From positions 51,352-115,351 of the forward strand of contig JAKFUG010000017.1 of assembly GCA_021732785.1 (NCBI GenBank): a stretch of 64,000 nt of DNA. The letters run 5' to 3'. This DNA comes from Planctomycetaceae bacterium. Its GTDB lineage: Bacteria > Planctomycetota > Planctomycetia > Planctomycetales > Planctomycetaceae. Position numbers and translations under genes: made by a program. Below are positions 25,014-51,525 of the stretch, piece after piece; the stretch's first letter is position 1; every line of letters starts with the position of its first letter. The notes beneath the pieces are model-generated. The model made no database searches. It was not told the origin of the DNA and saw only the letters and a program-made list of their open reading frames with translations.

Positions 25014-25240
25014 CACAGAGAACACAGAAGCACAAAAAAGTGGGCGAATGAGAGGAGGGGGAACCACGGAATACACGGAAAGGAGATAAAGAGTGAAGAT
25101 GGCGATTGCGGAGAGGGGGGACAAGCCTTTCCACTTCCGTTCCATTATTTTCCTTGCTCTCGTCTTCCTTCCGTGTCCTCCGTGTATTCCGTGGTTCTCT
25201 CTCTTCCCATCTTTTCTATGTTCTCTGTGTCTTCTGTGGA
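25014..25240. repeat. MITE-like element, family 3 (nested inverted repeats GGAACCACGGAATACACGGA..GACACGGAAG)
   Basis: Outer and inner inverted repeats with an 85-bp core. A second copy at 51205-51525 has a different core. Confidence 0.7.
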
Positions 25241-25360
25241 AAAGACCTCATCCGAACACCCTTGCTCGCGCTGCGGGCTGGTAAAGCGGTGGTTTCGCGT
25301 TCGATGTCGCAATCGGGTAGACTCTCGCCGCATGAGTTGAAGCGTGTTTCCTGATTTCTG

Positions 25361-26152
25361 ATGAGCTGCGAAATGGACGTCATTGCCGGTCATTTGTACG
25401 ACTTCCCCAAGTATTACGACCTCATTTTCGGGTCGGACTGGAAAGCCGAGTACAAGTTTCTGCTCGAATGTTTCGACCTGTGGGCCCGTCGGCCGGTGAA
25501 GCGGATTTTTGAACCCGGCTGCGGCACCGGGCGGCTGATGATCAAGCTCGCGCAGGCGGGCTACGAAATCAGCGGGCTCGATCTGAATCCGAAAGCGGTC
25601 GACTACTGCAACAAGCGGCTCGCGAAGTACGGCTATCCCGAGTCCGCATTCATCGGCGACATGGCCGACTTTCATCTCAAGAAGAAGGTCGACGCCTGCT
25701 TCAACATGATCAATACGTTCCGGCATCTCCCCAGCGAAGCCGCCGCGTTGGCTCATTTTCGCTGCATCGCCGACTGTTTGAACAAGGGGGGCATCTACGT
25801 TCTCGGTCTGCACCTCACGCCGAAGACTACGCAGCAATGCACGGAAGAATGCTGGTCCGCGGCGAAGGGGAATCTGACGGTCAATTCGCGACTGTGGTCT
25901 ATCGGCATCGATCTGAAGAAGCGCGTCGAACGGATCGGCATGACGTACGACGTCCACACGCCGACGCAGCAGTTCCGCATCGAAGACGAAACCGCCTTCC
26001 GCACCTACTCCTCCGAACAGATGCAAGCCCTGTTCGACGCCACACCGGGACTGAAACTCGTGGAAACCTACGACTTCCGTTACCACATCGACTGGCCGAT
26101 TGAGATCGATGCGGATACGGAGGATATTGTGTATATCCTGCAGAAACAGTGA
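25361..26152 (+). CDS. Class I SAM-dependent methyltransferase
   Basis: SAM-binding motif I IFEPGCGTGRL, an acidic loop and post I/II motifs. Confidence 0.8.
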   Translation: MSCEMDVIAGHLYDFPKYYDLIFGSDWKAEYKFLLECFDLWARRPVKRIFEPGCGTGRLMIKLAQAGYEISGLDLNPKAVDYCNKRLAKYGYPESAFIGDMADFHLKKKVDACFNMINTFRHLPSEAAALAHFRCIADCLNKGGIYVLGLHLTPKTTQQCTEECWSAAKGNLTVNSRLWSIGIDLKKRVERIGMTYDVHTPTQQFRIEDETAFRTYSSEQMQALFDATPGLKLVETYDFRYHIDWPIEIDADTEDIVYILQKQ

Positions 26153-26164
26153 TTGGTTACAGAC

Positions 26165-26194
26165 GTAGGGTTTGCCGAGTCCACGAGGCGAACC
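26165..26194 (+). repeat. 30-bp element family 6 copy A (GTAGGGTTTGCCGAGTCCACGAGGCGAACC)
   Basis: One of four copies in alternating orientation. Confidence 0.85.
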
Positions 26195-26220
26195 TGTTGG
26201 AGTCAAAAAAGGACACTGGA

Positions 26221-26475
26221 ATGGTTACCGTCTCGGTAACGATAACTATTGCGGGGATTTGGCCAACCCCACAGGAATTGGCGGCTCGAAATGCAGTTAC
26301 AGATTCATTAACAGCATCGAACATCGGCACATTGGCCGGAGCAGGCGGCGGTCGCGGAGAAATGGATTTCTCATACCGCGTCTCAGACGAGGTGGCTGCT
26401 CGCAAGGCGATCGACTCGGCGATGCAAGCTCACATGGTTGGCACAGAGTACCGAATTCGAACCTCGATCGAATGA
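26221..26475 (+). CDS. Small hypothetical protein (85 aa) inside repeat-bounded lower-GC module
   Basis: ORF MVTVSVTITIAGIW... in a roughly 52% GC segment bracketed by inverted family-6 copies. No recognisable family. Confidence 0.25.
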   Translation: MVTVSVTITIAGIWPTPQELAARNAVTDSLTASNIGTLAGAGGGRGEMDFSYRVSDEVAARKAIDSAMQAHMVGTEYRIRTSIE

Positions 26476-26501
26476 TGTCAGATTATTGGATTCTTTGAAT
26501 C

Positions 26502-26531
26502 GGTTCGCCTCGCGGACTCGGCAAACCCTAC
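26502..26531 (-). repeat. 30-bp element family 6 copy B (reverse orientation)
   Basis: GGTTCGCCTCGCGGACTCGGCAAACCCTAC. One mismatch from the reverse complement of copy A. Confidence 0.85.
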
Positions 26532-26762
26532 GTGCTGCCGAAGCAGACCCTACGAATTCATTTCGCTAATCCGCGAAGTACCTGCGGAATATCGGAACAC
26601 TGCCAGCCTTGTTTGAAGTTGACGCCGTCGGTGCGAACCCAGGTCTTGCGGGGGAATTGCAGCGGTTTTCCGGTCGGTAACAAGCCCGTCGCTCTCCGGT
26701 CTGTGTGCCCTTGGCGACCCGGTGACGCAGGGCGAGGACCCGCACGCAACGGTGTAACCGAG

Positions 26763-26792
26763 TAGGGTTTGCCGAGTCCTCGTGGCGAACCG
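26763..26792 (+). repeat. 30-bp element family 6 copy C
   Basis: GTAGGGTTTGCCGAGTCCTCGTGGCGAACC. Confidence 0.85.
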
Positions 26793-26838
26793 TCTTCGCT
26801 GTGAGCAACACTCGCCCAGTGATTTTCTTGTCGTACGA

Positions 26839-27312
26839 TCACAGCGCATATTGATCGCGCAGTAAACCAACGCCGTTGAAGAGGACCACCAGCACGACCG
26901 GCGTGAGGACCAACGCCTGCCATTTCCAGTATTCCTGCCAGAGCCACGTGTGAAGAAATTCACCGCGCCGGATGTGCGTGTACCATTGGGCAAGCAGGAC
27001 GGTGATTGGTACGCCAATGACGTAACCGTTGAGAAGACCAGCGGCAGTTAACCAGGGGAAAATCGGCACACGCAGTCCGCCGAAGGGATCGGCAATCATC
27101 TGGTAACTGATAAAACCAGTGATGCCAACGGCGACCAACGCAAAGAAGACCGAGAGGAGTACGTCCCGTAGCCGAACACAAATTGGGGCGTCGACCCGAT
27201 AGCCACGGATGCCGCACTGCGGGCAGTACAGCATCTCCGGCAACATTGGGATATCGCACGATTCACACCTCAAACACCGATCATCGACTGTGAATTGCAG
27301 AAATCGAAACAC
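26839..27312 (-). CDS. Membrane protein with N-terminal zinc ribbon (CxxC...CxxC) and 4 TM helices
   Basis: 157 aa with CLRCESCD....CPQCG followed by hydrophobic helices. Lies inside the second family-6-bounded module. Confidence 0.5.
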   Translation of the reverse strand: MFRFLQFTVDDRCLRCESCDIPMLPEMLYCPQCGIRGYRVDAPICVRLRDVLLSVFFALVAVGITGFISYQMIADPFGGLRVPIFPWLTAAGLLNGYVIGVPITVLLAQWYTHIRRGEFLHTWLWQEYWKWQALVLTPVVLVVLFNGVGLLRDQYAL

Positions 27313-27465
27313 GGTTTTGCCTATGAAACAGGTGAATCAATTGGACGCATCATCCTCTCTACGTTTGTGGCTCGCAGGATGTGGGAAGCACAATCCGACA
27401 AAGATTCAGAGTCCGGTGATTCTACGAAATCGGTTACGACATCGACTTGCCGATCGATCCGGAAT

Positions 27466-27495
27466 GGTTCGCCTCGCAGACTCGGCAAACCCTAC
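27466..27495 (-). repeat. 30-bp element family 6 copy D (reverse orientation)
   Basis: GGTTCGCCTCGCAGACTCGGCAAACCCTAC. Lies inside the 3' end of the next gene. Confidence 0.85.
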
Positions 27496-28367
27496 GGAAC
27501 AACCGCGTTTTTCGAGGGGGCAATTGTTCGGCGCGTCCAGTGCCATTTCCGACACAGTGGGCAGCGTTCGTAGCGCAGATTCATGCCGAAATTGAATCCT
27601 GTGAACAATCCGCGGCCATACGGTTGATGGCAACTGGGGCAGATGGCGTGGCCGTAGAAAATGACGCCCAAGCGGCTGTTCCACCCGCCGAGCCCGATCA
27701 GCCACGCCAACGCTATCGTGAAACAACCGACAACCCACAGCGCCACGAGGAGCTGCGCGATGTTCTTGTCCGCTCCGAGCCAGCCGAGGTGGGCCATTCT
27801 GATCGGAAAGTTCGCACAGTAATGGGCGAGCGTAGCACTCGCAAAGCCCCATCGGAAGCCCGGACCGCAGCGCCATGCGGCCAAGACAATGGCCGTCATC
27901 CCGCTGTGAATTGCGCAGGTCATGAAGCGTTCCTGGATGAACCCGCCCAACTGATACCACGGTAGAGCCGCGATCTCGGGCTTGCGTTCCGCAATCAATC
28001 CGGCGACGGTGACCATTTCACCCAGCGCAAACCCCAATCCCAGTGCGAGCGCGACTTGCACAATGTTCTCCCGTGTGATTGATTTCCTCACGCGGGGCAA
28101 TAACAGCGGCCATAACTTTGCCGGCTCTTCAGTCAGCGGGGCGTACGCCGTCCGAAGCCAGCCCAAGGCTTCTCCGTCTCCCAGGAGCGTGACGAGCCAA
28201 CCGTCCAAGGGCATCCGGACGCCGTGAAACATCACCCAACACGTGGGCAGCGTCGCCATCAAGCACAGCGACATCCACCGCCGCTCCGTCACCGGCGTCG
28301 CGCACCACAACCACGTTCCGAACACGCCGAGGGAAACCAGCATCGCGACAAGCGTTGCGATGAGCAT
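27492..28367 (-). CDS. Polytopic membrane protein, possible PrsW/CPBP-like intramembrane protease with C-terminal zinc ribbon
   Basis: 291 aa. Candidate motifs are EExxK (TEEPAKL), an F....H region and HxxxN (HYCAN), plus a C-terminal CPSC...CPLC ribbon. The family call is tentative. Confidence 0.4.
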   Translation of the reverse strand: MLIATLVAMLVSLGVFGTWLWCATPVTERRWMSLCLMATLPTCWVMFHGVRMPLDGWLVTLLGDGEALGWLRTAYAPLTEEPAKLWPLLLPRVRKSITRENIVQVALALGLGFALGEMVTVAGLIAERKPEIAALPWYQLGGFIQERFMTCAIHSGMTAIVLAAWRCGPGFRWGFASATLAHYCANFPIRMAHLGWLGADKNIAQLLVALWVVGCFTIALAWLIGLGGWNSRLGVIFYGHAICPSCHQPYGRGLFTGFNFGMNLRYERCPLCRKWHWTRRTIAPSKNAVVP

Positions 28368-28433
28368 TTTGTACCTCCTGAAAGTCGGTCTGTGGTCGCA
28401 TCGGACATTCGTGATGTGGCCGATGTGGATTCA

Positions 28434-28823
28434 TCATTTCAGCAAAGTGACCAGACCCACGATCGACAAGATGACCACGAAGACCGCTACGATCACGATT
28501 GCCGTTAGGGCGTCCGGTTGCATTCCACTCCAGGTCCGGTACGGATCCTGATGCAATTCGGCATCTTGCGCGCGGCAGGCGATTGGCCGACGCAATCGCA
28601 CGCGGTTGTTGTCCAGCTTTTCGAACAGGTCCCACCCGGCTTCCGCTTCCTGATCCAATGCCGCGCGGAGACGGGCGGGATGGCGGAAGGTGGCCCAGGC
28701 GCTGCGGAGAATTTTGTACTCGTACCCATCGTCGGTGGTCATTGGGGCGGTCTCCAGTTCTTCTTCACGTTCGCGGTCTTCACGACGTTTTTTGGCGGCA
28801 GCAGCCGCAGCGGCTCCGGACAT
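28434..28823 (-). CDS. DUF4177-like small protein with C-terminal TM anchor
   Basis: YEYKIL core motif, poly-Ala and acidic N-terminus, C-terminal hydrophobic helix. Confidence 0.45.
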   Translation of the reverse strand: MSGAAAAAAAKKRREDREREEELETAPMTTDDGYEYKILRSAWATFRHPARLRAALDQEAEAGWDLFEKLDNNRVRLRRPIACRAQDAELHQDPYRTWSGMQPDALTAIVIVAVFVVILSIVGLVTLLK

Positions 28824-29087
28824 GGTTCCATCTTTCCGTCATTCAAGGCGATCCATTGGACTTGTGAAGCGAAAAACGTCTGAGGACATGCGGGTAGATC
28901 ACGGGCACGGAACGGTGGCAGACATTTTTTCTGAAATTCCCCCCGCCTGTCGACACGGTCGCGTATAATCCAAAAATGAATGGAGCGCCGGTGCCTTGTG
29001 ACACCGGCGGGGACGTGTCGGGCCGAAACTGTTGCCCGCCGATCTTTGAGATGACAAAACTCCGTTCGTCCCGCCTGAGAGACCACC

Positions 29088-29516
29088 GTGGCTCCGTCCC
29101 GCCGTCATAAAGCCCGCGAAACTGTCCTGCAGATGCTCTATCAGAAGGATCTTAATCCGGATGTGACCATCGAAGACATCCGCGCGATGATTCAAGAACA
29201 AATCTCGGACGACGAACTGGGCCGTTTCGCCTGGCGGTTGTTCGCCGGGGTGATGGAATCGCGTACGGCTCTCGACAGCAAGATTGAAGCGACCGCGGCC
29301 AACTGGGGCCTCAGCCGCATGGCTCCGACCGATCGGAATGCGATCCGTCTGGGTGCGTTTGAACTGCTCTATACCGACACTCCGCCGCGCGTGGTGATCG
29401 ACGAAGCCCTCGAACTTGCCAAAACCTACGGCGGCCCGAATTCCGGTTCGTTCGTCAACGGCATTCTCGACCGGCTCATCCCGGAAGAGAAACGCACGCC
29501 AAAACCAGAAGCCTGA
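29088..29516 (+). CDS. nusB: Transcription antitermination factor NusB
   Basis: 142 aa with the RRxARExxLQxLYQ N-terminus and conserved NusB helices. GTG start. Confidence 0.85.
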   Translation: MAPSRRHKARETVLQMLYQKDLNPDVTIEDIRAMIQEQISDDELGRFAWRLFAGVMESRTALDSKIEATAANWGLSRMAPTDRNAIRLGAFELLYTDTPPRVVIDEALELAKTYGGPNSGSFVNGILDRLIPEEKRTPKPEA

Positions 29517-29529
29517 TGACCGCGATACA

Positions 29530-29627
29530 ACGAGCCCGAAGCGCCAGCGCCGGGTGTATGCGATATTTGTGATCTTCCTCGGGTCTCAAATGAGAAGGCA
29601 CCCGGCGCTCGCGCTTCGGGCTTGTAG
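29530..29627. repeat. Hairpin element, family 2 copy (between convergent nusB and cation antiporter)
   Basis: ACGAGCCCGAAGCGCCAGCGCCGGGT ... ACCCGGCGCTCGCGCTTCGGGCTTGT with a roughly 45-nt loop. Confidence 0.7.
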
Positions 29628-29666
29628 GGGTGCTGTTTTCATGGATCTGTCAACGGCATCGTAGAA

Positions 29667-30695
29667 TCATCCCTGTTGCTGCCCCAGGATGTAGAGCACA
29701 TACAACGCTGCCAGAATGAGGGCGATGACCAGAATGGCGTCGGGATCGATCACGCGTTGGCGTTTCGTTTCGCCATAGAGTTGACCGATGACGGCGACCG
29801 AAGTGACGATGACCGCCGCCGCCCCCGTGACGATGTGATCGGGTGAGACCGATGCCAGCAGGCTCCCGGGGTAGAGTGCATCGAGCGGCAAAAGCAGCAG
29901 CATGTTGAACGCGTTGCTGCCGAAAATATTGCCCGCCGCGAGATCGAATGCGCCCATCCGCACGGCGACGATACTGGCGACCAGTTCCGGCAGCGATGTC
30001 GTGAGCGCCACCAATGTGGTACCGACGAATGTCCGCCCGAGTCCGGATTGATCGGCGATCACCCCGGCGCTGATCGAAAGTGACGGACCGACGAGGACGA
30101 TCACCCCGGCAGCCGCCACGAACCCGATGATCGCGGTCCTCAACGACATGGATGGGACAGCTTCGGCAGCCAATGGAGTGGGCGTCTCGTGATGGTCCTG
30201 TCTCGCAAGTTGCTGATCGCGAAAGATCAACCGCACTCCGAACAGATAGGCGATGCCCACGAGCCACAACGTCGGCGCGATTCCCCCCAATGTGATGCCC
30301 CCCAGTCGTGACCCGGCGGCGATGCCGAAGATGACGAGGCTGGTGGTGAGAATCCCCGCCATCGCGCTCAGAGCATGCCCCATGGATTCGCGACTGAAAG
30401 CTCGGCGGGCGGAATGATAGATCCAGTCGAGACTGGCAAGGATCAGCAGATTCATCAGCGAACTGCCGAACAGATCGCCGACGGCAAGATCGGGCATATT
30501 GTTGCGGATCGCGGTGATATCGACCACGAGTTCCGGCAGCGATGTCGCCCCGGCGATGAGAATGCTCCCGACCAGCAAGCGGCCGAACCCGGTCAATTCC
30601 GCAATCGCATCCCCGCACCACGCCAAGGCCGTTCCCGCCGCGACAATGATCAGCGAGCAAACGGCAAACGTGATCAGGGCAGTCGTCAGTGTCAT
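29667..30695 (-). CDS. Ca2+/Na+ antiporter, CaCA family (YrbG-like)
   Basis: Two alpha-repeat motifs, GATSLPEL and GNIFGSNAFN, and about 10 TM helices. Confidence 0.85.
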   Translation of the reverse strand: MTLTTALITFAVCSLIIVAAGTALAWCGDAIAELTGFGRLLVGSILIAGATSLPELVVDITAIRNNMPDLAVGDLFGSSLMNLLILASLDWIYHSARRAFSRESMGHALSAMAGILTTSLVIFGIAAGSRLGGITLGGIAPTLWLVGIAYLFGVRLIFRDQQLARQDHHETPTPLAAEAVPSMSLRTAIIGFVAAAGVIVLVGPSLSISAGVIADQSGLGRTFVGTTLVALTTSLPELVASIVAVRMGAFDLAAGNIFGSNAFNMLLLLPLDALYPGSLLASVSPDHIVTGAAAVIVTSVAVIGQLYGETKRQRVIDPDAILVIALILAALYVLYILGQQQG

Positions 30696-30866
30696 GCGGG
30701 ATCACCCACTTTCAGCAGGAGTTTTGCGTCACTTCTCGAACGAGTGGCGACAGATGGCGGTTCACGGGAATCGAGCATAGCCCGCCTCGATTCCCGCGAG
30801 TGCTGTGGAGACCAGCATCCTCCGCAGCACCCGCGAATCGAATCATCACTCATTGACCCGCGATCA

Positions 30867-33209
30867 TCAATTCACACTCGCCGTGTTGACGGGTTCATGC
30901 AACATCGCCGAGGCATCGCGCGTGAGCTGCTGCGTAAGGTCGTCGAACTCTGCGGGTTCTATCGGGCCGTTTGGTGTGAAGCCGGATTTTTCGGCGACGA
31001 GCAGGCCGAGTAATGTGCCGAGCAATCCTTGACCGCCGAGTGCATTCGTATCGCCACCGTTTCCGTTCGTCATGAACAATCGCTGTGGGACGAGCGGCTG
31101 CGTGGCGTGGGCGAGTTCCTTCGAGGCGAACGCCAGCGCGAACAACCGTGGGTCGCCGTAGGACGCGATTTTCTTCTGCAACACCGCGGCTTCCGCAAGG
31201 CCCTCTTGCAGAATCCGCAGCGCTTCCCCGCGGCCGGTGAGTTTGTTGCGCTGGCTTTCCGCTTCCGCAAGCAAACCGACTTGCTCCGCATGGCGGCGAG
31301 CACGGGCGACTTCGGCGTCGCCTTCACACTCGGCCATCTGAATCTGCAACCGCGTTGCCGCGAGATCGGTCTGCGCCTGCATGATCTTCCGATCGTTCTG
31401 CCGCTTGGCGATTGCCAGTTCCGCGTCGCCGTTGCTTTCGGCGATCTGCACTTTCAGCCGCGCGTTGGTCATCTCCGTCTGCATCGCCGCCTGGGCTTTC
31501 GCTTCGTTGAGGACCCTCAACTTGTCGTTCGCCGTGCATTGATGTTCGTAGGTTTCCACTTGTTCGATCGACAATTGCCGCAGACGGAGTTGTTCGAGCA
31601 GCGATTCAATCTTCCCGTCGGCTTCCGCGGTGTCGGGCTTGCCGATGAGAACATCGACGCATTCAATGTCGAACTCGTGGAACCGCCGACGTAATTCGGC
31701 CTGGGCTTCGCGCTGGATCACATCGCGGTCGTGCAACAGTTCGAGCATCGTCTTGCGGTGCGCGATGTCCCGGAAATATGCGGACAGCAGCGGATCGAGT
31801 GTTTGCGTGATCAACTTCTTCACGTCACCGAAGCGCTGGATCACGCTCGGCGCGCGTTGATAATCGATATGCACCACCACCGACAACGGCAGCGACGGTT
31901 CGTACGCATCGCGCGTGACGAGATCGATGGACCGCAGGTTTTCATCGTACCGATGCGTCTCCGTCCGGCCGGTGATCCAGTGCAACACGAAGTTCGTCGT
32001 CGGCACGAGGACAATGTTCCCCGCGTACACATTGAAGGCGTACTTGCCGGGTCCGAGTGGTTGCTTCCACACGCCCCGTTCCCCTTCGGCGACTTGCTCG
32101 CCGTGACGGAACGCATCGCCGGACAAATCGCGACCGGTGCGACCGTAGTAACTCACCACGACGCCGACATGACCGATAGGCACGACCGTCTTCGGGACCA
32201 TTTCCACCGAGGCAAACCAGCGGTTGATAAAGTACGTGCCGTCGGTGAGCGCCTGGTATTGCCGACCGCGACGACCACCAGCGTGCAGGAACGCTTCGGG
32301 GTCCTGAAAGTTATTGTGATCGGTCCCGAGAGCGGCGTCACCACCGACGGGCGGGGCGATCAGTTCCCCCGCCAGCAACGACGGGCCGTCCTGCACCGTG
32401 ACGATGCCGATGGTGTCATCGACTTCATCCCCGGTAGCAGCCGTCCCGGCACGACCGCCGACGACGACCGGTTGGAAACCGTTCACCACTTGCAATTCCG
32501 CTTGCCATTGCTTGACGGCGGTCCGTTCCTGCGGTTCCTGCACTTGTGACAGCGCAAACACATGCCCCGTCGTGATGACCACGAACAATGCCGGGTTCAC
32601 GGCATACACGCCTTCACGCAAGATGGCCCGTTGCCGCCCGCGTTGACCGCGTGGATGTTCCGGTCCCGGTTCGAGGAACAGCGCGGCGTCCTGGAAGTTG
32701 TTGCTCGGGACGATACGGCCGAGCGTTTGACTGGGCGACAACGATTCGCCATCGCGAGCATAGACGTAACCAATCTCACCCTGCGGAATGGTCACCAGCC
32801 GGGCTTTGTGAATGCGGTATTGCCAGCGGTAATAGCCGAAGTGCAGGCCGCCGCGCACCAGCCGGGCCTGATAACCGGCCTCGCCATTCAATGCGACGAT
32901 GCGTCCTTCGGCGAGGGAGCCGCGACCCGACCAGAGTTTCTCCACGACGCCCACGCGGTTATGGGGAATGTACCGCATGCAGAGCCACCAGAGAAACAGG
33001 AGTGCGGGGACGCCGATGGCGAGGAGCATCCACACGCTGGCGTGCAGGAACCAGTGGCCCACGTCGGTCAGGTTCAGTCCGTCAAACAGGATTTCAGTGA
33101 TTTTTTCCAAGATCGATCCGACGACGATTTTCATCGTCAGCCCTTCCTGCGAGCGCAACGCGGCTCGCGGCGCGGAGGCGGTCTCATTCATGGGGGATGG
33201 CCATCTCAC
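30867..33209 (-). CDS. Flotillin-like SPFH/band-7 protein with two SPFH-like domains and long coiled coil
   Basis: 780 aa with an N-terminal TM segment, SPFH motifs (RVGVVEKLWSG) and an extended E/A/Q/R-rich flotillin-type coiled coil. Confidence 0.7.
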   Translation of the reverse strand: MRWPSPMNETASAPRAALRSQEGLTMKIVVGSILEKITEILFDGLNLTDVGHWFLHASVWMLLAIGVPALLFLWWLCMRYIPHNRVGVVEKLWSGRGSLAEGRIVALNGEAGYQARLVRGGLHFGYYRWQYRIHKARLVTIPQGEIGYVYARDGESLSPSQTLGRIVPSNNFQDAALFLEPGPEHPRGQRGRQRAILREGVYAVNPALFVVITTGHVFALSQVQEPQERTAVKQWQAELQVVNGFQPVVVGGRAGTAATGDEVDDTIGIVTVQDGPSLLAGELIAPPVGGDAALGTDHNNFQDPEAFLHAGGRRGRQYQALTDGTYFINRWFASVEMVPKTVVPIGHVGVVVSYYGRTGRDLSGDAFRHGEQVAEGERGVWKQPLGPGKYAFNVYAGNIVLVPTTNFVLHWITGRTETHRYDENLRSIDLVTRDAYEPSLPLSVVVHIDYQRAPSVIQRFGDVKKLITQTLDPLLSAYFRDIAHRKTMLELLHDRDVIQREAQAELRRRFHEFDIECVDVLIGKPDTAEADGKIESLLEQLRLRQLSIEQVETYEHQCTANDKLRVLNEAKAQAAMQTEMTNARLKVQIAESNGDAELAIAKRQNDRKIMQAQTDLAATRLQIQMAECEGDAEVARARRHAEQVGLLAEAESQRNKLTGRGEALRILQEGLAEAAVLQKKIASYGDPRLFALAFASKELAHATQPLVPQRLFMTNGNGGDTNALGGQGLLGTLLGLLVAEKSGFTPNGPIEPAEFDDLTQQLTRDASAMLHEPVNTASVN

Positions 33210-33744
33210 TGTGCTTGCGCTTAGCGGACACTAGTCGCGTGCTAAGCGCAAGCAGTCATAAGACGAGAGAAATCAGGAGAGCGGTGGGCTCAATCCTTCA
33301 CGAAGAGTCTGCCCATTCAAAACGTGGTCGAGAGCACACGTCTCAACCGGCCTGCGAGGTTAGCTGACGGGCTAGAGCTTGAATGTGCTCCGGTGAACTC
33401 GGGCATCGCCGTTGTCCCACCTGCGCCCCATGCGGCTCGTCGTGAAGACGTTCCGCGTTGGTTCCCCCGCTCTCGTGTCCTGCCACGAGACTCGGCTGCA
33501 TCCCTGACATTATGGCAAGTTGCAACTTCAGACAGAAAAGATGCGAACGGCATGCCGGACAATGCAGATTGCCCGAAGATCTTGTTGCCGAATTACTTAT
33601 GGCTGGCATATTCCGGACGTTGCGATGTGTCGAGACAGTTGGTTTTCAGGAAATAGCTTCCGTGCACTGATTGCGCGGCTGTGGGCTGGTGATGTGGGGT
33701 TGAATTTATCCCATCCAATGGTATGATTTGGCTGTGTCGTCCCC

Positions 33745-34188: not shown

Positions 34189-34236
34189 TCTTTCTTCAAG
34201 GGAATACAGGATCGGGTACCAGCCAGGAAAGTCACA

Positions 34237-34644: not shown

Positions 34645-34667
34645 CAAATTACACATGGAGAAAATGG

Positions 34668-40600: not shown

Positions 40601-40617
40601 GTGGCGCTCAGCGGAAC

Positions 40618-42995: not shown

Positions 42996-43406
42996 ATGCC
43001 AGTACACCGTATCCATCTTCGTGGCCCGTGGGATGTCACCGGACCATGGCCCGACGCCGCAGAATCCGGGGAAATCCGGTCGGTGACCCTGCCTCAACGC
43101 TGGGAAACGGTGTTTGGATCAAACTCCGGTACCGCGACATTCTCCCGCTGGTTTCATCAACCGACGAATCTGGTCGAAGAAGATCGGTTGGCCATCGCGC
43201 TCACCGGCGTGACAGGAAGCGGCCGGGCATGGCTGAATGAGCACCCGCTCGGTGAATTCACCGCCCGTGAAGAAACCGTGAGGTTGCCGCTACGGCTGGG
43301 GCAATTGCAGCATCGCAACCGATTACGGATTGAGCTGTCGTGTACGGTCGGGCAATCCGGACTCTACGACGCCGTCGCGATTGAGATTGATTCGGACAGT
43401 GAGTGA
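42996..43406 (+). CDS. Hypothetical protein
   Basis: 137 aa ORF starting MPVHRIHLRGPWDV. Weak support. Confidence 0.25.
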   Translation: MPVHRIHLRGPWDVTGPWPDAAESGEIRSVTLPQRWETVFGSNSGTATFSRWFHQPTNLVEEDRLAIALTGVTGSGRAWLNEHPLGEFTAREETVRLPLRLGQLQHRNRLRIELSCTVGQSGLYDAVAIEIDSDSE

Positions 43407-43430
43407 TTGCGGATTCGTTCTCCATCCTCG

Positions 43431-44369: not shown

Positions 44370-44497
44370 GATCCTGCTCCCTGAACCGGGAGTGATACCG
44401 TAATTGGCGGTTGGCGCACAGCAGAATTTTGCGCGGGAAACGAAGAGACCCAGGGATCGGAATCCCTGGGCTTCTGCGGATCTCGTGCTGTCGGGGG

Positions 44498-45757
44498 TTA
44501 CTTTTTCTCGATCCGGTCGAGCGATTCCTGCAGGTCTTGCAGTTTCTTTCGCAGGGATTCCTGTTGCTTCGTCAGCAGTTCCTGCTGTTGTTTCTGCAAC
44601 ATTTCGAGCTGTTTGTCGAGCAACTCAATCTTTGCGGCCAGGTCCGCAGGAGACGCGGCGGCTTTCACCGGGGGCGGTGCTGTCACGGTCACTCGGCCGG
44701 TCACTTTCGCGTCGGAATTCACGGCCTGGCCTTTGATCGTTTCCGTCTGGTAGACCGTTCGCACCGGCCAGTTCGATGTTCCCGCCCAGGGATGTGCGAA
44801 CGCCGGACCACCCGCATGGGGCAAACCCTGATGTAAGGTCGCGATCACGGCTTGCAGGGCATTGCGCCCTTCCGGCGGCAGCGTGCCGATTTCTTTCTCG
44901 GTCGCACCCCACGAATTGTTCTTGCCGGTTTGGTACTTGATCTGAATCGGTTCCTTACCCGTTTTCGTGATGGTGACGGTCACATTCTCCGGCAATTCGG
45001 GGTTGGACATCACGACGATGTGCGGCACTCCGGGGGGAGGTAACGTCACCGGAGGAGCGACCACCGGGCCGGTGAAGTGGATCGTTGTCGGTTGCGGTTG
45101 ATTGCTGATCACGGATTGCAACTCCCGCAGCAATTGCTGGATGCGCTCGGGATTGGCAGGGGCTGAGGGCGGAGCCACGGCGAGATTCAAGGTGCCTGCG
45201 CTCAGCAACGACACGTCCTGATTCGGTTGCGGCCGTTCGGCGGGCGTGACGGTAATGTCCTGCGGCTTGCCTTGGCGAATCACCGTCAACACCAGCGGTT
45301 TTGTTTCCGCTTTCACCACCATGCCGGTTAAAGTCGCCACGCTGTCGAGGGGTTTGCTTTCATCGCCGAATTTCACCGTGGTGATGACGTCATGCACCTG
45401 AAACCCGGCGGCTTTCGCGGGGCTGCTCTCCGCGACCATCGTCACCAGGAGCGCCTGCTTTTCCGTCAGGCCGAGCTGCGATTTCAAAGCGTCCGTGGCC
45501 AACTCGCACCCGAGACCGATCCAATACTTGCTCTCCGGCCCAGCATCGACCAGGGCGAAATGTCCGGAACCGACCACTTCCAACCGCGGGGCATTCTCCG
45601 GCGCTGTTCCATTGGAAACGTTCGCATCGACATCGTTGATCAAGGTGGCATCCACCCGAATCGCAGCCGGTTCTTCTCCCCGCACCACAGACAGCAGTAC
45701 GCCGCCTGCCGCCAGGACAACCCACAGGCCGAACAACATTCTCGACATGGAATTCAC
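44498..45757 (-). CDS. Secreted PDZ-domain protein with C-terminal coiled coil
   Basis: Signal peptide, a PDZ-like region (GLTEKQALLVTMVAESSPAKAAGFQVHDVITTV) and a Q/E/K/L-rich C-terminus. Confidence 0.5.
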   Translation of the reverse strand: MNSMSRMLFGLWVVLAAGGVLLSVVRGEEPAAIRVDATLINDVDANVSNGTAPENAPRLEVVGSGHFALVDAGPESKYWIGLGCELATDALKSQLGLTEKQALLVTMVAESSPAKAAGFQVHDVITTVKFGDESKPLDSVATLTGMVVKAETKPLVLTVIRQGKPQDITVTPAERPQPNQDVSLLSAGTLNLAVAPPSAPANPERIQQLLRELQSVISNQPQPTTIHFTGPVVAPPVTLPPPGVPHIVVMSNPELPENVTVTITKTGKEPIQIKYQTGKNNSWGATEKEIGTLPPEGRNALQAVIATLHQGLPHAGGPAFAHPWAGTSNWPVRTVYQTETIKGQAVNSDAKVTGRVTVTAPPPVKAAASPADLAAKIELLDKQLEMLQKQQQELLTKQQESLRKKLQDLQESLDRIEKK

Positions 45758-45821
45758 TCCTCAAAAAGGTTTCACTTCCACGACGATCCTTCGTCGCAGG
45801 TGATTTCACAGATCATTTTTA

Positions 45822-45908
45822 ACAAGCCCGAAGCGCGAGCGCCGGGTTCTTCTTCGTTCGTTATTCGAGATCAATGCGAAAAACCCGGCGCTGGCGTTTC
45901 GGGCTTGT
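45822..45908. repeat. Hairpin element, family 2 copy (inside the sigma / anti-sigma / PDZ gene string)
   Basis: ACAAGCCCGAAGCGCGAGCGCCGGGT ... ACCCGGCGCTGGCGTTTCGGGCTTGT. Confidence 0.7.
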
Positions 45909-45915
45909 GAGACGC

Positions 45916-46611
45916 TCACCGGAAGTCCGCGAGGCTCACGGGGCTGACGGTCCATTCCTGCACGGGCAGGTAACCTCGCCTCCCGTCGGCGAGATCGACT
46001 TCCACCCATTCTTGCCGTTCCACCAGCTTCTGACCGTGCCGCAGCAGCATCTCGCGGACGCGGTCGGGCACACCGGGGGTCGCGTGCAGCCACGCCTGCC
46101 CCACGGGCGAAGACGCATCGACCACTGGCGTCGCCACCGGGTGCGATAACGCCCCGTCGCCATACTGGAACGACACCGGTACCGTTTCCATAACAGGAAC
46201 CGTGGCTTCGTCGTTCTGTTCGGAGGATTGCGGGGCAACAGCCACTGTCGGTGCGGACTCCGTGGCAATCGACCACGGCCGCCCGAAGTGCATGCCTCCG
46301 AAGAACGCCAACAGCACTGCCGCCCCCGTCAACAGGAAGTGTGTCACCCCGCGGCGGGAGTGCGGTATGTTCTTTGTCGTCGGAGTCATCATGACAGCGG
46401 GTATCGTGGGCGCGATCCAGTCCTGACAGGTTCGTCGCAAGGTCTGCGCTTCGAGAAATGCTAACCCGACCCGCCGCCATTGAATCGGCGAATTTTCTAA
46501 CTGTTCGAGGACCGCCCGGTGTTCCGCGGGCGACAATTCCCCATCGACGAGCCGGTCGAGCAGTTCATCGGTCAGCGTCTCTTCGTTGTCGGACAGCGCG
46601 GATAAATTCAT
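45916..46611 (-). CDS. Putative anti-sigma factor (single TM)
   Basis: ATGA-overlapping start with the upstream ECF sigma gene. Cytoplasmic N-terminus, one TM and a periplasmic C-terminus. Confidence 0.5.
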   Translation of the reverse strand: MNLSALSDNEETLTDELLDRLVDGELSPAEHRAVLEQLENSPIQWRRVGLAFLEAQTLRRTCQDWIAPTIPAVMMTPTTKNIPHSRRGVTHFLLTGAAVLLAFFGGMHFGRPWSIATESAPTVAVAPQSSEQNDEATVPVMETVPVSFQYGDGALSHPVATPVVDASSPVGQAWLHATPGVPDRVREMLLRHGQKLVERQEWVEVDLADGRRGYLPVQEWTVSPVSLADFR

Positions 46612-47162
46612 CGGGTCGACTCCAGCAACTGAAACGCGGCGAGTTCCGACCGCAACCGGGCCCGCGCCCGATGCAACCGGGCTTCCACCGCCGACTCGCT
46701 CACGCCTAACCGGGCGGCGAGGTCGCGATAACTCCATTCCTCCGTGTATTTGAGCACCAACAACTCGCGATCCTTCGGAGTCATTCGCAACAGCGATTGC
46801 CGCACCAACTGCTGCCGTTCGTCCGCCAGCAGCCACGCCAGCGGATCCAGAGGCGCGGCCGGACGCTCGGCACCATTCTCACCAAAACGCTGCTGCAAGC
46901 GTCGTTGTCTGCCCCTTTTGCGACGGTACAACAGCGCCAGACGAACCGCCATGCCATACAACCACGCGGGGAGTTTGTCCGACGCCACATGCACCGGCGG
47001 CTTGCGGATCACGGCGACGGCGAGTTCCTGAAACAACTCGTCGACCGCGGTCCGTTCGCCGCACCGCACCAGCAGCACCGTCCGCAACCACCGTCCGTGC
47101 GTCGCCAGCAGCGCGGGTCCGTCCGCAGGTCCAGCATCGGCGGTAGTCCATCGCCCGTGCAT
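46608..47162 (-). CDS. RNA polymerase ECF-type sigma-70 factor
   Basis: Region 2 (WLYGMAVRLALLYRRK) and region 4 (LVLKYTEEWSYRDLAARLGVSESAVEARLHRAR). Confidence 0.85.
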   Translation of the reverse strand: MHGRWTTADAGPADGPALLATHGRWLRTVLLVRCGERTAVDELFQELAVAVIRKPPVHVASDKLPAWLYGMAVRLALLYRRKRGRQRRLQQRFGENGAERPAAPLDPLAWLLADERQQLVRQSLLRMTPKDRELLVLKYTEEWSYRDLAARLGVSESAVEARLHRARARLRSELAAFQLLESTR

Positions 47163-47315
47163 CTCACCACGGTAGTTGCCGCCGGAAGAAAAATCTTGCG
47201 AAGTGTTTCGTTTTGCCCAGAATTTATGGCAAGGTTTCGATTGCTGACAGGGTGACATGCGGGATGGGAACGACCGGGGTATGCGGTTTCTGGAAACGAC
47301 CCCGGTAGGGGTCTC

Positions 47316-47450
47316 AGCCATGAGCCGGTGGTTGAGCGCAGCGACACCACCGGACTTTGATTCGAAATGGAATTGCATCCTGAAGGGATGCGATCCTTCG
47401 CATCAACTTGCAACCGGTGGTGTCGCTACGCTCAACCACCGGCTAATGGC
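47316..47450. repeat. Composite hairpin element, family 4 (two inverted copies flanking a GCATCCTGAAGGGATGC hairpin)
   Basis: AGCCATGAGCCGGTGGTTGAGCGCAGCGACACCACCGG on one side and its inverted copy AACCGGTGGTGTCGCTACGCTCAACCACCGGCTAATGGCT on the other. Lies 150-300 bp upstream of the ECF sigma start. Confidence 0.6.
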
Positions 47451-47615
47451 TTTCATCCCTCCGGGATAAGTAAACGCCCGGGGACGATTTCGATAAGCCG
47501 TGTTAATATCAACACCGTTCATGGCGAAGATGATGTTGAACGAACGTCTGCACGTGAAGGAATCGGATCCTCATTAGCCGATCCGTGGGTGCTCGTCCCG
47601 AAAAGTGACGAGGAA

Positions 47616-48119
47616 TTATAAATCCACGGTGAACAACACCGAGCGCTGCGCTTCCGCGGCTCGATGATAGAACTCGACGAGTTGCTCGAATTCGTCCCAC
47701 GTTGACTGGTAATCGTCGAGACCGTACGGGCCGTCGTAATCGTCGGGAGAAATCCGGTCGTAGCCCACGCGGAAATCGCGTGACGTGACTTTGCTCAACG
47801 CAGCGGCGATGAGTCCCACCTGCTCGGCATCTTTCAGGCTGATGATGTAATCGTTCTCGTCGTAGAGTTGCTCGCCGCCAAGAATCACATGATTGAGCGG
47901 GAACGTCCCGTTGTTCCAGCCAATGTCGCCGTCGGTGAGACAGCGGTGGATCGCGTCCCACGTCTTGCCAAGATCGCACAGCCACAACGGCTGATTCTCG
48001 AAAAAGTCTTCTTCGATTTCCCGTTGCAGAAAATCGACACGGTCATCGTCATCGTCCATCTGACGAAGCCGATCGACGACTGCGGATTCCACAGCGAATA
48101 ACACACCGATGCCGGACAT
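47616..48119 (-). CDS. DUF1877 (YfbM-like) family protein
   Basis: 167 aa. Motif pattern DF...LW..D.GKTWDAIH.CLT resembles E. coli YfbM. Confidence 0.45.
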   Translation of the reverse strand: MSGIGVLFAVESAVVDRLRQMDDDDDRVDFLQREIEEDFFENQPLWLCDLGKTWDAIHRCLTDGDIGWNNGTFPLNHVILGGEQLYDENDYIISLKDAEQVGLIAAALSKVTSRDFRVGYDRISPDDYDGPYGLDDYQSTWDEFEQLVEFYHRAAEAQRSVLFTVDL

Positions 48120-48133
48120 GGGAAAGCTTTCAA

Positions 48134-48273
48134 GGAGTCGAGAGCGGAGAGTCGAGAGTCAAGAGCCAAAGGGAGAGCAAGACTCACGCACAACATATCA
48201 AAGTGACCACGACGTAATTCCGAACGAGCCGACTTATCTGGCTCTCGACTCTCGACTCTCCGCTCTCGACTCC
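48134..48273. repeat. MITE-like element, family 5 copy A (34-bp inverted arms built from GAGTCGAGA tandem sub-repeats)
   Basis: GGAGTCGAGAGCGGAGAGTCGAGAGTCAAGAGCC ... GGCTCTCGACTCTCGACTCTCCGCTCTCGACTCC with a 72-bp spacer. Confidence 0.75.
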
Positions 48274-49317
48274 CTACACCAGCGGCGTCTTGTGGGCTTC
48301 GCCGGGGATTTCGCGGACGTATTGCGGCACGGCATAGCCCGGCAGGCGCTTGCGTAGTTCGGTCATCAGAGTGCGACCGGTTTCCTCGGGGACTTCAAAA
48401 TGCGCGGTGCCGTTCACGCGGTCGAGCTGATGCAGATAGTACGGCATGACCCCGAGATCGATCAGCCGTTCGCACAGCTCCACCAGCGCGGTCACCGAAT
48501 CGTTCACGCCGCGTAAGAGCACCGTCTGGTTGAGCGTGGTGATCCCGGAGCGAACGAGTAGCCGGACGACATCGGCACAATCGCCGGTCAATTCCCGGGC
48601 ATGATTCGCATGGATCACCATCCACGGCGTGAGCCGCGATTCGGACAGCCGTTCGATGAACGACGGGGTGATCCGTTCAGGCAACACAATCGGCAACCGC
48701 GTGTGAATGCGCAGCCGACGCAAATGGGGAATGGTTTCCAGTTGTTCGATGAGCGCGAACAGCCGGGCATCGGTCAATGCGAGGGGATCACCGCCGCTGA
48801 GCAGCACTTCGTGAATGGAATCATCGGCGGCGAGCGCGTCGAGCGCCGGTTGCCAGTCGTCCAACTGTCGCGGCGATTCGGCATAGGGATAATGCCGGCG
48901 GAAGCAGTAACGGCAATGGACCGCGCACACGCCGGTGGTGATCAGCAACGCGCGGCCGTTGTACTTCTTCAACAGCCCCGGCGCGATTTGCGCGGCATCA
49001 TCCCCGACGGCATCCACGCTGTAACCCGGCGGCGATTCCGCTTCGACATCCAGCGGCAGCACCTGCCGCAGTAACGGATCGTGTGCGTCCTCCGGCGTCA
49101 TTCGTGCGAGGTAACTTTCCGGCACCAGTAACGGAAATAACTTCGCCCCGCGCTGAGCCGAGGGCAACCATTCGCGCGGCAAAGACAGGCGTTCCAGCAA
49201 CACCGCGGGATCACGCACGGCATTCGCCAGCGCCTGCTGCCAGGCGGCGCGATGGATCGGTGCGGAAAGGGGGGACAACATCGTCATGAGACGATTGTCC
49301 CCGGAAAGCATGCACAA
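48274..49317 (-). CDS. Lysine 2,3-aminomutase family radical SAM protein (EpmB/KamA-like)
   Basis: CxxxCxxC radical SAM motif CAVHCRYCFRR. GGDPL. Length about 347 aa fits EpmB. Confidence 0.7.
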   Translation of the reverse strand: MCMLSGDNRLMTMLSPLSAPIHRAAWQQALANAVRDPAVLLERLSLPREWLPSAQRGAKLFPLLVPESYLARMTPEDAHDPLLRQVLPLDVEAESPPGYSVDAVGDDAAQIAPGLLKKYNGRALLITTGVCAVHCRYCFRRHYPYAESPRQLDDWQPALDALAADDSIHEVLLSGGDPLALTDARLFALIEQLETIPHLRRLRIHTRLPIVLPERITPSFIERLSESRLTPWMVIHANHARELTGDCADVVRLLVRSGITTLNQTVLLRGVNDSVTALVELCERLIDLGVMPYYLHQLDRVNGTAHFEVPEETGRTLMTELRKRLPGYAVPQYVREIPGEAHKTPLV

Positions 49318-49328
49318 AAAAAGGCCCC

Positions 49329-49415
49329 TACAAGCCCGAAGCGCGAGCGCCGGGTTCTCTTTATCATGCCGTAAAGCAAAATTCGAAGAACCCGGCGCTC
49401 GCGCTGCGGGCTTGT
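49329..49415. repeat. Hairpin element, family 2 copy (divergent intergenic region)
   Basis: ACAAGCCCGAAGCGCGAGCGCCGGGT ... ACCCGGCGCTCGCGCTGCGGGCTTGT. Confidence 0.7.
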
Positions 49416-49563
49416 GAATGCGGTTTTCCCCCTACAAGGGCGAATTTTCTCGACTTTTTCTCTGCGATTCCGCTATGCTCGCCGAATCAACCACTTTCGA
49501 TGCGTTGCTGTCCGCAAAGTTCCGCATCGCTGGTCCCCGCACCTCTCTGAAAAGGCGGCAACG

Positions 49564-51138
49564 ATGGCTCCTCGTTCTCGACGTGAATTCCTGGCCGATG
49601 TCGGTTGCGGAATGGTGGTCGCGGGTATCGGTTCCGCGACGGCGTTCGATCTCGGTCTCGCCCCGGCTTGGGCCAAAGAAGGCGACGGCCCTGAACTCGC
49701 CTTCGGTGATCGTGAACCGCTGGTCCGCCTGTTGCAGGACACCAGCGCGGACAAGATGCTGCCGATGGTGGTCGAACGTTGGAAGCAGGGAACGTCGCTG
49801 GAAGAAATCGTGGCCTGTGCGGCGCTCGCGAATGCCCGCACGTTCGCCGGGGAAGATTACATCGGCTTCCACACGATGATGGCCCTCACGCCGGCGCTGA
49901 AGATGGCCCGCGAGATGCCGACGGCAATCAGCTTGCTGCCGATCCTGAAAGTGCTCCATCGCAACAGCACCCGCATTGAAGAACACGGCGGGCATGCTTC
50001 GGAAAAAATGCACCCCGTCGCCTTCGATGCCACGCAAACCGCCGTTCCGTCACCGGACCAGCTTCATCAGGCGGTGCTTGGAAAGGACAAAGTGCAGTCG
50101 GAAGAACTTTTCGCGCGGATCGCCCGGCAGTCTCCCGACGCGGCGTTCAACAGCGTGCTCGAAGTTGTGCAGGACAACACGGAAGTGCATCGCGTGGTGA
50201 TGCCGTACAAAGCGTGGGAACTGCTCGATGTCGTCGGCCGCGAGCACGCTCATTCGCTGCTGCGGCAATCGGTGCGGTACTGCGTGAAAGCGGAGATGAA
50301 CACCCACAACGATTATGCCCGCGGCGGCAGCCAGTTGTTGCCGAAGCTCTTCGATGAACACAAGCTGTTGTCGAAACCGTTCGGGACTTCACCGGCTGAT
50401 GACGCCTGGGTTGACCATCTCTCGAAAACGATTTTCCAGAGCACGCCCGATGAAGCCGCGGCGGCGGTGGCGATGGCGCTCACCGAAGGGTTCGCCCCGG
50501 ATGCGATCGGCGAAGCGGTGACACTCGCAGCGAATCAGTTGCTGCTGCGCGATAAGGGACGGCCGAAATCGCAAGCCCAGGCGACCAAGCCCGAAGGCAG
50601 CATCCACGGCGATTCCATCGGCGTGCATGCGGGGGATTCGGCGAATGCGTGGCGGAACATGGCCCGCGTCGCCAATCCGCGGAATGTCGCCGCATGTCTG
50701 ATTCTCGGTGCCTGGCAAGTCGCATTCGATCGCACGTCGCGCGGCGGTGACTTCCTCGCCTGGCAACCGTGGCCGTTGTCGGAACACACCGAGACGTTGA
50801 AGTCCGCGGCCAGTCAGCTTTCTGCGGATGACGTGTTGAAGACGCTGGATAATGCCATCCGCGCGAACGATCAGGCGCTCGCCAGCGCGGCAACGGCCGC
50901 ATTTGCTGATCGCGACGGCAACCCTGCGGCGATCTTCTCATTGTTGCGCGGCTATGCGATCAGCGAAGACGGGGCCTTGCACGCGGAAAAATACTACCGC
51001 ACCGTCAGCCAGGAATTCGCCGAAGCCCGCGCCGCGTTCCGGTGGCGGTATGTGATCGGTCTGTCCCGCGTCACCGCCAGCGAATTCGGCCGGCCCGCGC
51101 CGGGAGTGGCGATCGCCCGTGAATTGCTGCACGGATAA
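49564..51138 (+). CDS. Tat-signal exported all-alpha hypothetical protein
   Basis: Twin-arginine motif [17 protein letters not shown]. No recognisable family. Confidence 0.5.
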
Positions 51139-51204
51139 TTCAGACAGAGAAACCAACGCCTCGCCCGCACCCCGGTTGCTTCCGTGCAGCCGGGGTGCTT
51201 TCGT

Positions 51205-51525
51205 TTCATGTGGTGGAAATAAGAGAGGAACCACGGAATACACGGAGGACACGGAAGAATACCGGAATGAAAAGTCAGAGGGCGGAGCGACTGACACGCA
51301 TTCCAGGAGTCATCCGTGCGTTTTGAAACGTGCCGCTCATCACGCGGAGCGTGATGGCCACCATGGTAGCCATCACGCTCCGCGTGATGAGCGGATCCCA
51401 CACAACGCGCTGTTCATTGTTAGGATCAGTATGACACGATCTCCGCCGGACCGAGATTTCTTGATCCTGATCTTTTCCAATTCCGTGTCTTCCGTGGTTC
51501 GCTCCGTTTTTCTGTTCTGTGGTTG
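51205..51525. repeat. MITE-like element, family 3 copy 2 with nested 64-bp near-perfect palindrome (51333-51394)
   Basis: Terminal inverted repeats GGAACCACGGAATACACGGAGGACACGGAAG / ATTCCGTGTCTTCCGTGGTTC. Inner palindrome CGCTCATCACGCGGAGCGTGATGGC...GCCATCACGCTCCGCGTGATGAGCG. Confidence 0.7.

Follow-up and report, generated by a model that had tools for sequence, protein, structure and literature searches.

The window analysed here, a 64,000-nucleotide stretch from a Planctomycetaceae bacterium (contig JAKFUG010000017.1, positions 51,352 to 115,351 of the forward strand), carries two intergenic elements, element 1 upstream of a methyltransferase gene and element 2 upstream of an HpcH aldolase gene, whose inverted terminal arms are made of tandem 9-bp words. 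Sequence comparison places both elements in the same family as the arms that bracket genes for small GxxExxY nucleases of the PD-(D/E)XK type. As far as can be read from its letters, the repeat is an almost unchanged hairpin of 9-base words that extends across about 14 bacterial phyla and the archaeal family Methanosarcinaceae. There is an even prospect that the window elements are non-autonomous members of a system resembling that of the repetitive extragenic palindromic (REP) sequences, their hairpin-forming doublets (REPINs) and the REP-associated tyrosine transposases (RAYTs), in which the driving enzyme would be a PD-(D/E)XK nuclease and the words its binding sites. The original prediction, in which the two elements resembled miniature inverted-repeat transposable elements (MITEs) and might carry a mobile promoter or operator, is partly supported.

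Nine-base words and the gene they enclose

The 20-mer GGAACCACGGAATACACGGA, with at most three mismatches, matches the 64-kb window at four places, 25060(+) and 25179(-) in element 1 and 51227(+) and 51482(-) in element 2, which form two inverted pairs; the number expected by chance is 0, as judged from 0 matches in 100 shuffles of the window. All 30 positions are complementary between 25168-25197, in the right arm of element 1, and 51228-51257, in the left arm of element 2, and the building blocks of the arms in the window are the 9-bp units CCACGGAAT, ACACGGAGG and ACACGGAAG, of the form xCACGGAAx. The core of element 1 is unrelated to that of element 2. These comparisons confirm three claims of the original prediction, namely inverted termini common to the two elements, 9-bp sub-repeats within the termini and unrelated interiors.

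The termini are repeated far beyond the window. A scan for the exact 18-mer AACCACGGAAKACACGGA over one genome per species, about 1.2e12 positions in all, placed it at at least 119 genome loci in at least about 14 bacterial phyla and in two metagenome-assembled genomes (MAGs) of Methanosarcinaceae. Among the matches listed, the carriers belong to Verrucomicrobiota, Planctomycetota, Lentisphaerota, Kiritimatiellota, Acidobacteriota, Chloroflexota, Desulfobacterota, Alpha-, Beta- and Gammaproteobacteria, Bacteroidota, Ignavibacteriota, Armatimonadota, Hydrogenedentota and Riflebacteria, and include one Clostridia MAG. By our own estimate, an 18-mer with one two-fold position is expected about 35 times by chance in about 1.2e12 positions. 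Among the matches listed, a third in-phase word is present in 101 of 144, an inverted partner within 700 nt in 67 of 144, and one or the other in 118 of 144 (82%), and so this high proportion, together with the shuffles of the window, rules out an origin by chance or low complexity. Matches were found in 13 of 2.9 million viral contigs, so few that a viral origin is rejected. At gathering score the repeat has no match in Rfam 15, where it draws only generic matches to long microRNA-precursor hairpins far below threshold, and a known RNA family is therefore rejected as its identity; no description of the arm sequence was found in the accessible literature.

Each arm consists of two to four direct 9-bp words with the consensus R-CACGGAA-N, preceded by KKAAC; from either end, it is the purine-rich strand that reads inward. 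The usual family member is an intergenic hairpin spanning 42-180 bp, the window copies lying at the large end of the range. The loops vary from about 10 nt to an entire 125-aa gene, the commonest form having only a short loop, so that what had been proposed from the two window copies, dispersed elements with inverted termini in common and exchangeable cores, holds for the family in general. The arms within one MAG are alike and the loops differ, except in a Brocadiaceae locus (L039), where two copies have a common core. Outside the seed regions, carrier genomes contain about 1.3 extra independent sites per 100 kb, and the window contains two in 64 kb. By crude open reading frame (ORF) calls, the only gene calls used for the loci, 8 intergenic hairpins lie between convergent genes, 18 between co-directional genes and 3 between divergent genes, and so the constant position just 5' of an ORF suggested by the two window copies is not a property of the family. 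By the same calls, single arms lie in the sense direction of flanking co-directional genes 13 times and in the antisense direction 13 times, without orientation bias.

Clustering of the ORFs across all loci has revealed a single family tied to the arms, the small proteins of TIGR04256 GxxExxY / PF13366 PDDEXK_3; no other recurrent neighbour gene family was found next to the arms across the loci. The enclosed gene encodes a PD-(D/E)XK protein of about 125 aa, and the arms directly abut its start and stop codons. In Desulfamplus (L037), no gap separates the left arm from the ATG, and the stop codon is immediately followed by the right arm and then at once by the ribosome-binding site of the next host gene. 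A member of the Verrucomicrobiae (L050) has the same arm-GxxExxY-arm layout, and in the Brocadiaceae locus the gene lies between the two complete hairpins. In 80 metagenomic loci (L141-L220), which represent one GxxExxY subfamily at least 67% identical to the query, recognisable word arms are present at the gene ends in about 62; the commonest layout, arm-gene-arm ('>gene<'), accounts for 32 of the 80, and most of the others have an adjacent complete hairpin. When ORFs bracketed by any inverted repeat are counted in all loci, 33 of 40 encode GxxExxY, a fraction that is biased because the 80 loci were picked for this gene. The words at GxxExxY genes occur in the variants CACGGAA, CACGAAA and CGCGAAA. 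The window arms are identical to arms that bracket these genes, with at least two in-phase 9-bp C[A/G]CG[G/A]AA words after AACC, in inverted arrangement.

More than 7,800 close relatives of GxxExxY were found in this search. No solved structural homologue of the protein was found by sequence, and GxxExxY is only mentioned in passing in the accessible literature. The function of PDDEXK_3 is listed as unknown, and horizontal transfer of this family between bacteria and archaea has been noted (PMC3424549), which the cross-phylum reach of the arms fits.

The word type follows the protein clade. The left and right arms of a cassette, the gene with its arms, agree in word type in 49 cases and disagree in 1-4, and a single word type is used throughout in 30 of 35 cassettes, none of them being a half-and-half mixture. 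The nearest protein neighbour has the same word type in 57 of 62 cases, compared with about 44% by chance, and neighbours less than 80% identical still do so in 14 of 17. Consistently, the four CGCGAAA cassettes cluster together by protein, and 36 of 40 other arms on the contig of a cassette are of its word type.

The words also persist over long times of divergence. In pairs of cassettes whose proteins are about 70% identical, saturation is reached at four-fold synonymous sites (29% identity), and the arm linkers are 65% identical, as measured on the 7 cassettes that passed a strict filter and at linker bases that the detection rule leaves unconstrained. Between the two arms of an element, linker bases are 58% identical versus 50% ± 1.3% for shuffled partners, suggesting that base pairing itself is hardly maintained. 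The mismatches between cassette arms in the sense RNA comprise 20 G:U, 21 A:C and 33 transversion-type pairs, without an excess of G:U. These are signs of sequence-specific reading of the words and not of the conservation of a mere stem.

The window elements and their sites in relatives

Element 1 is one imperfect palindrome of 235 nt (25009-25243; RNA fold -110.9 kcal/mol, z -7.6), in which an outer module of CACAGAA words (25010-25040 / 25211-25243) surrounds the CACGGAA module. The arms of element 2 likewise pair to close it (RNA fold, z -8.7), and its core has sub-hairpins. The near-perfect palindrome noticed earlier in element 2 is real and measures 62 nt; its arms, 51333-51363 and 51364-51394, are 31 nt long and 97% complementary. 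It consists of two opposed copies of the 19-bp hairpin CATCACGC-N3-GCGTGATG and looks like a separate small stem-loop module. The features at the two sites are as follows.

24862..25287, no strand: variable segment holding element 1, non-homologous to the closest relative L133 (blastn boundaries)
25010..25040, plus strand: outer left arm of element 1, purine-rich CACAGAA-type words TTTTCACAGAGAACACAGAAGCACAAAAAAG (sequence; pairs with 25211-25243 in the fold of 25008-25248)
25060..25081, plus strand: inner left arm of element 1, GGAACCACGGAATACACGGAAA, two CACGGAA words (sequence match, inverted-repeat search)
25082..25167, no strand: core of element 1, imperfect palindrome without coding signal (RNA fold; protein and DNA hidden Markov model (HMM) searches)
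25168..25198, minus strand: inner right arm of element 1, three words CTTCCGTGTCCTCCGTGTATTCCGTGGTTC (30/30 complementarity to the left arm of element 2)
25211..25243, minus strand: outer right arm of element 1, CTTTTCTATGTTCTCTGTGTCTTCTGTGGAAAA (sequence, RNA fold)
25288..25372, plus strand: conserved region at the methyltransferase start codon, outside element 1 (84% identical to L133)
51167..51204, plus strand: intrinsic-terminator-like hairpin and T tail after the 574-aa gene, just outside element 2 (conserved in L138)
51205..51508, no strand: whole of element 2, an insertion/deletion difference from L138 (blastn boundaries)
51227..51257, plus strand: left arm of element 2, three words GGAACCACGGAATACACGGAGGACACGGAAG (sequence match)
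51258..51476, no strand: core of element 2, several sub-hairpins, no coding signal (fold z -8.7; HMM searches)
51333..51394, no strand: 62-nt palindrome nested in the core of element 2 (two opposed CATCACGC-N3-GCGTGATG hairpins)
51477..51501, minus strand: right arm of element 2, two words CCAATTCCGTGTCTTCCGTGGTTCG (orthologous to the lone right arm in L137)
51509..51592, plus strand: conserved region at the HpcH start codon, outside element 2 (86% identical in L137 and L138)

Element 1 is flanked by two genes that point away from each other, a BNR-repeat gene on the minus strand (start 24920) and the gene of a 259-aa S-adenosylmethionine-dependent methyltransferase. Since comparison with homologues puts the start of the latter at 25373, the gap between element and gene is about 130 nt and not the 121 bp given before. 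Element 2 lies between two plus-strand genes, with the 574-aa gene and its terminator-like hairpin (51167-51198) upstream and the HpcH gene, starting at 51593, downstream. Its extent had been put at 51205-51525; comparison with the relative L138 leaves the left end in place and moves the right end to 51508. The closest protein matches of the neighbouring genes are in Planctomycetaceae, such as Schlesneria and Planctellipticum. For annotation, the arms are a likely source of error, as their translation often yields spurious small ORFs and N-terminal extensions. Long ORFs or extensions of this kind are seen in the window at 51119-52387 and, on the minus strand, at 50938-51401, as well as in L041, L050 and L073, and the spurious arm-derived peptides read NHGIHG..., TTEYTE... 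and SVSSVV....

The elements are absent or different in three close relatives, L133, L137 and L138. The methyltransferase of L133 is 93% identical and has the same neighbours; homology to the window extends up to 24861 and resumes at 25288, and at the place of the 426 bp that hold element 1 in the window, L133 has 785 bp containing an unrelated ORF of 188 aa. In L138, whose HpcH protein is 94% identical, homology extends to 51204, terminator included, and resumes at 51509, and 695 bp with an unrelated 181-aa ORF take the place of element 2. In L137, with an HpcH protein 97% identical, the right arm alone remains, in the orthologous position, and coincides exactly with a break in gene order. 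The 62-nt palindrome is absent from both L137 and L138. The replacement segments of L133 and L138 have no terminal inverted repeats, and no remnants of the small ORFs of the relatives were found in the window. Since the relatives carry other segments or a lone arm, both elements occupy fast-changing spots that differ between near relatives. The approximately 85 bp that adjoin each start codon are conserved whether or not a relative has the element. The window elements thus appear to be passive inserts in fast-changing intergenic spots upstream of conserved promoter-proximal sequence, and they appear to mark places where gene order breaks between relatives.

Candidate explanations of the repeat

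A nuclease with gene-less satellites is the favoured explanation because the nuclease gene is bracketed by the arms, gene-less copies lie in intergenic regions, target duplications are missing, the word variant follows the protein clade, and relatives differ by gain or loss of the elements. As to duplication, target-site duplications of 2-9 bp at offsets 0-4 show no excess over shuffled controls in the 95 elements with AACC...GGTT ends, among which the inverted repeat stops at AACC/GGTT in 60. A full-size copy would encode the GxxExxY nuclease, and the 9-bp words would be its sequence-specific binding sites. Acting in trans, this nuclease would maintain gene-less hairpins or cause them to spread, and no target-site duplication would arise on the route taken. 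The two window copies have larger loops than the commonest form, occupied by other small palindromic modules. Both the binding of the words by the nuclease and its mobilisation of the gene-less copies are inferred.

The likeness to the REP/REPIN-RAYT system is close. Both have short intergenic palindromic repeats, tens to hundreds per genome and often in inverted pairs forming a hairpin, both lack target-site duplications, and in both one small nuclease-type gene is flanked by inverted repeats whose variant follows the protein clade. However, the gene enclosed here is a PD-(D/E)XK GxxExxY gene and not a Y1 HUH transposase gene, and the arms are tandem arrays of 9-bp words with freely varying loops instead of a single stem. 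Furthermore, REP elements carry a GTAG or CGTC tag (PMC3733652), whereas the arms here have neither and begin with KKAACC; and REPs are lineage-specific, whereas the same arm is found here in about 14 phyla and an archaeal family. A broader claim, that the gene and its arms form a previously unrecognised class of nuclease-driven palindromic mobile elements in bacteria and archaea with the words as GxxExxY recognition sites, is conceivable but somewhat less probable. Such a class would be a functional analogue of RAYT/REPIN resting on another enzyme fold; without target duplication it would seed genomes with tens to hundreds of gene-less hairpins like the two window copies, lie nested in other palindromes, and mark hot spots of small-gene swapping and gene-order breaks. 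Should the link prove causal, one domesticated or selfish nuclease with many palindromic satellites, an arrangement so far known from REP/RAYT, would have arisen a second time independently, and the reach of such a system across phyla and domains would be exceptional. The very large GxxExxY / PDDEXK_3 family would also be tied to a specific and easily recognised DNA motif, which offers a direct experimental handle.

Several observations weigh against this explanation. No GxxExxY gene or remnant of it was found by protein and DNA HMM searches in the 64-kb window, both cores included, and no clean empty site was found in the relatives, which hold other DNA at both positions. Copies in one genome have common arms and differing cores, an unusual pattern if the whole element is copied at once. 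The covariation of word type with protein clade is also expected from plain co-inheritance of gene and arms. Many cassettes lie directly upstream of genes for HsdM, Eco57I/MmeI-type methylases or YhcG-type nucleases (e.g. L143, L141, L187, L149 and L201), and their stop and start codons often overlap the upstream gene, indicating translational coupling in a defence-operon context. Given this coupling to restriction-modification genes, the cassettes may belong to defence operons as established components and not be active mobile DNA. The AlphaFold model of GxxExxY has a predicted local distance difference test (pLDDT) score of 40, too poor for use. Finally, two viral contigs, L127 (IMGVR_UViG_3300020074_001175) and L128 (3300020083_000121), contain 17-18 CACGGAA-type arms, all in gene direction and in one orientation only, without an inverted partner. 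These arms are chained with the word modules CGCAGAT, GAATTGA, GTTGAGAG and CACGAAT, and some lie within long ORFs and would be translated.

Nesting is common among the elements. In Methanosarcinaceae MAGs (L040, 4190-4365 and 6050-6180; L110), the CACGGAA hairpin lies inside a palindromic repeat of about 170 bp, TTATAGTC..., one copy of which adjoins an 11-bp tandem array, AAAAAGGTAGA; one cassette cluster lies inside an inverted repeat TTCCCGGAAT.... In bacterial interspersed mosaic elements and Rickettsia palindromic elements, too, small palindromic modules form nested or chained mosaics between genes, but each of those families keeps to one lineage and has no associated nuclease gene. No model fully explains both the nesting and the one-way arrays of the viral contigs.

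The main rival places the function in RNA. The arms would pair in the transcript, either as a long stem of the kind that RNase III cuts out in the intervening sequences of 23S ribosomal RNA (rRNA) or as a fold-back hiding the ribosome-binding site of the nuclease gene, and the gene-less hairpins would be decayed cassettes or processing or stabilising stems. Both window elements do fold far better than shuffled sequences, the left arm of a cassette reaches to the start codon and often contributes a Shine-Dalgarno-like GGA(A/G)G motif, the stop codon is closely followed by the right arm, and hairpins are commoner between convergent than between divergent genes. The intervening sequences of 23S rRNA also have an inverted-repeat stem around an optional small ORF, with similar small ORFs in many copies and in the same phyla. 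However, no similarity to E. coli rRNA was found in the window or in any of 220 loci, so that a location in rRNA, as for a 23S intervening sequence, is rejected, and pairing is not preferentially maintained. The RNA explanation is further weakened by the linkers, which show that words and not pairing are kept, by the absence of a G:U excess in the sense RNA and by the lack of strand bias of single arms. In addition, a plain stem needs no identical 18-mer across phyla, and precise gene loss tens of times per genome is implausible. We therefore regard an RNA-level role as unlikely.

Less probable still is that the arms are arrays for some other conserved protein, or repeats spread only by recombination and horizontal transfer, with GxxExxY as a frequent passenger. 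The conservation of sequence without a pairing constraint points to a word-reading protein, gene-order breaks coincide with arms, the two viral contigs chain one-way arms with other word modules, and the window contains other hairpins made of different words. Against this stand the absence of any other gene family recurring beside the arms and the word type, which goes with the GxxExxY clade and is uniform across a contig; a host protein that reads an identical 18-mer in bacteria and Methanosarcinaceae is hard to name.

The elements resemble bacterial MITEs in being small, non-coding, dispersed in intergenic regions, bounded by terminal inverted repeats and present or absent between relatives. 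They could then be deletion derivatives of a DDE-transposase element, for example of Mu type, with several transposase-binding sites at each end, and tandem sites reading inward from both ends do fit such a picture. The right end of phage Mu (L221, AF083977), TGAAGCGGCGCACGAAAAACGCGAAAG..., read inward, contains CACGAAAAACGCGAAAG and CACGATAAATGCGAAAAC with C[A/G]CGA-type half-sites; CACGAAAAACGCGAAAG is identical at 16 of 17 positions to the CACGAAA-type arm CACGAAAAACACGAAAG. The MuA binding sites at the Mu ends thus share with the arms C[A/G]CGAAA-type half-sites, the 9-bp spacing and the inward direction from the terminus, a striking resemblance that may be coincidental. Nevertheless, membership of a Mu-type family is not supported, since a 5-bp duplication, a fixed terminal TG and a nearby DDE transposase are all lacking; either of the bases before AACC may be T or G. 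In contrast to MITEs, the 95 elements show no target-site duplication of any length from 2 to 9 bp, no transposase ORF was found between or beside the arms in 220 loci, so that a parent insertion sequence is missing, and only the termini and not the cores are common to the copies. A classical MITE identity is therefore highly improbable.

The position of both window copies upstream of a gene, and a palindrome with the operator-like layout of two 19-bp dyad sites 33 bp apart, had suggested a mobile promoter or operator carrier with the palindrome as a regulator-binding site for HpcH, but this has very little to recommend it: relatives with 93-97% identical proteins keep the approximately 85 bp at the start codon without element or palindrome, the palindrome being absent upstream of HpcH genes whose proteins are 94-97% identical, no sigma-70-like promoter was found in element 1 or element 2, and the family occurs in every intergenic context, convergent included. 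Moreover, a TCACGC...GCGTGA hairpin pair like that of the palindrome follows a stop codon in a Verrucomicrobia MAG (L117), the only related hairpin found, and the palindrome has no match in viral contigs. The conserved start-codon sequence, the lack of a sigma-70-like promoter, the absence of the palindrome from L137 and L138 and the hairpins of L117 together make a promoter or operator role unlikely, and the occurrence of the pair after a stop codon in another phylum makes the palindrome look like one more stem-loop repeat. Binding of CsrA or Hfq, extracytoplasmic-function sigma promoters, rrn BoxA and attC sites were also considered and dropped because of misfits in orientation, hairpin context or motif.

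Other repeats and features in the window

Hairpins made of different words, GAGTCGAGA and GTGTCAAGT, lie at 48134-48168/48239-48273, with a related arm at 1958-2006, and at 60123-60157/60248-60282. They have a purine-rich arm of tandem words, an arbitrary core of 70-90 nt and a pyrimidine-rich arm, as in the two elements, which suggests that word-repeat hairpins form a wider class.

A GTAG-tagged REP-like repeat, ACGTAGGGTTTGCCGAGTCCNCGAGGCGAACC, occurs in both orientations at 26163-26194, 26502-26533, 26762-26792 and 27466-27496. One pair of these copies brackets a small ORF (26148-26475), and the stretch 26150-28560 is not homologous to L133. Two more palindromic repeat families, ACAAGCCCGAAGCGCGAGCGCCGGGTTCT and GTCGGGGCGGGGGCCCCGACCTA, account for hairpins at 18829, 29530, 45822 and 49330 and for the sites at 3352, 13189 and 16377. 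A repeat of 52-56 nt, CCGG..GTCTCAGCCATGAGCCGGTGGTTGAGCGCAGCGACACCACCGG, is present in three copies (8871-8926, 47302-47353 and 47412-47467), two of which form an inverted pair 60 nt apart. The window also contains a cyclic di-AMP riboswitch (RF00379) at 33335-33507 on the minus strand, which scores 55.7 bits against a gathering score of 38.

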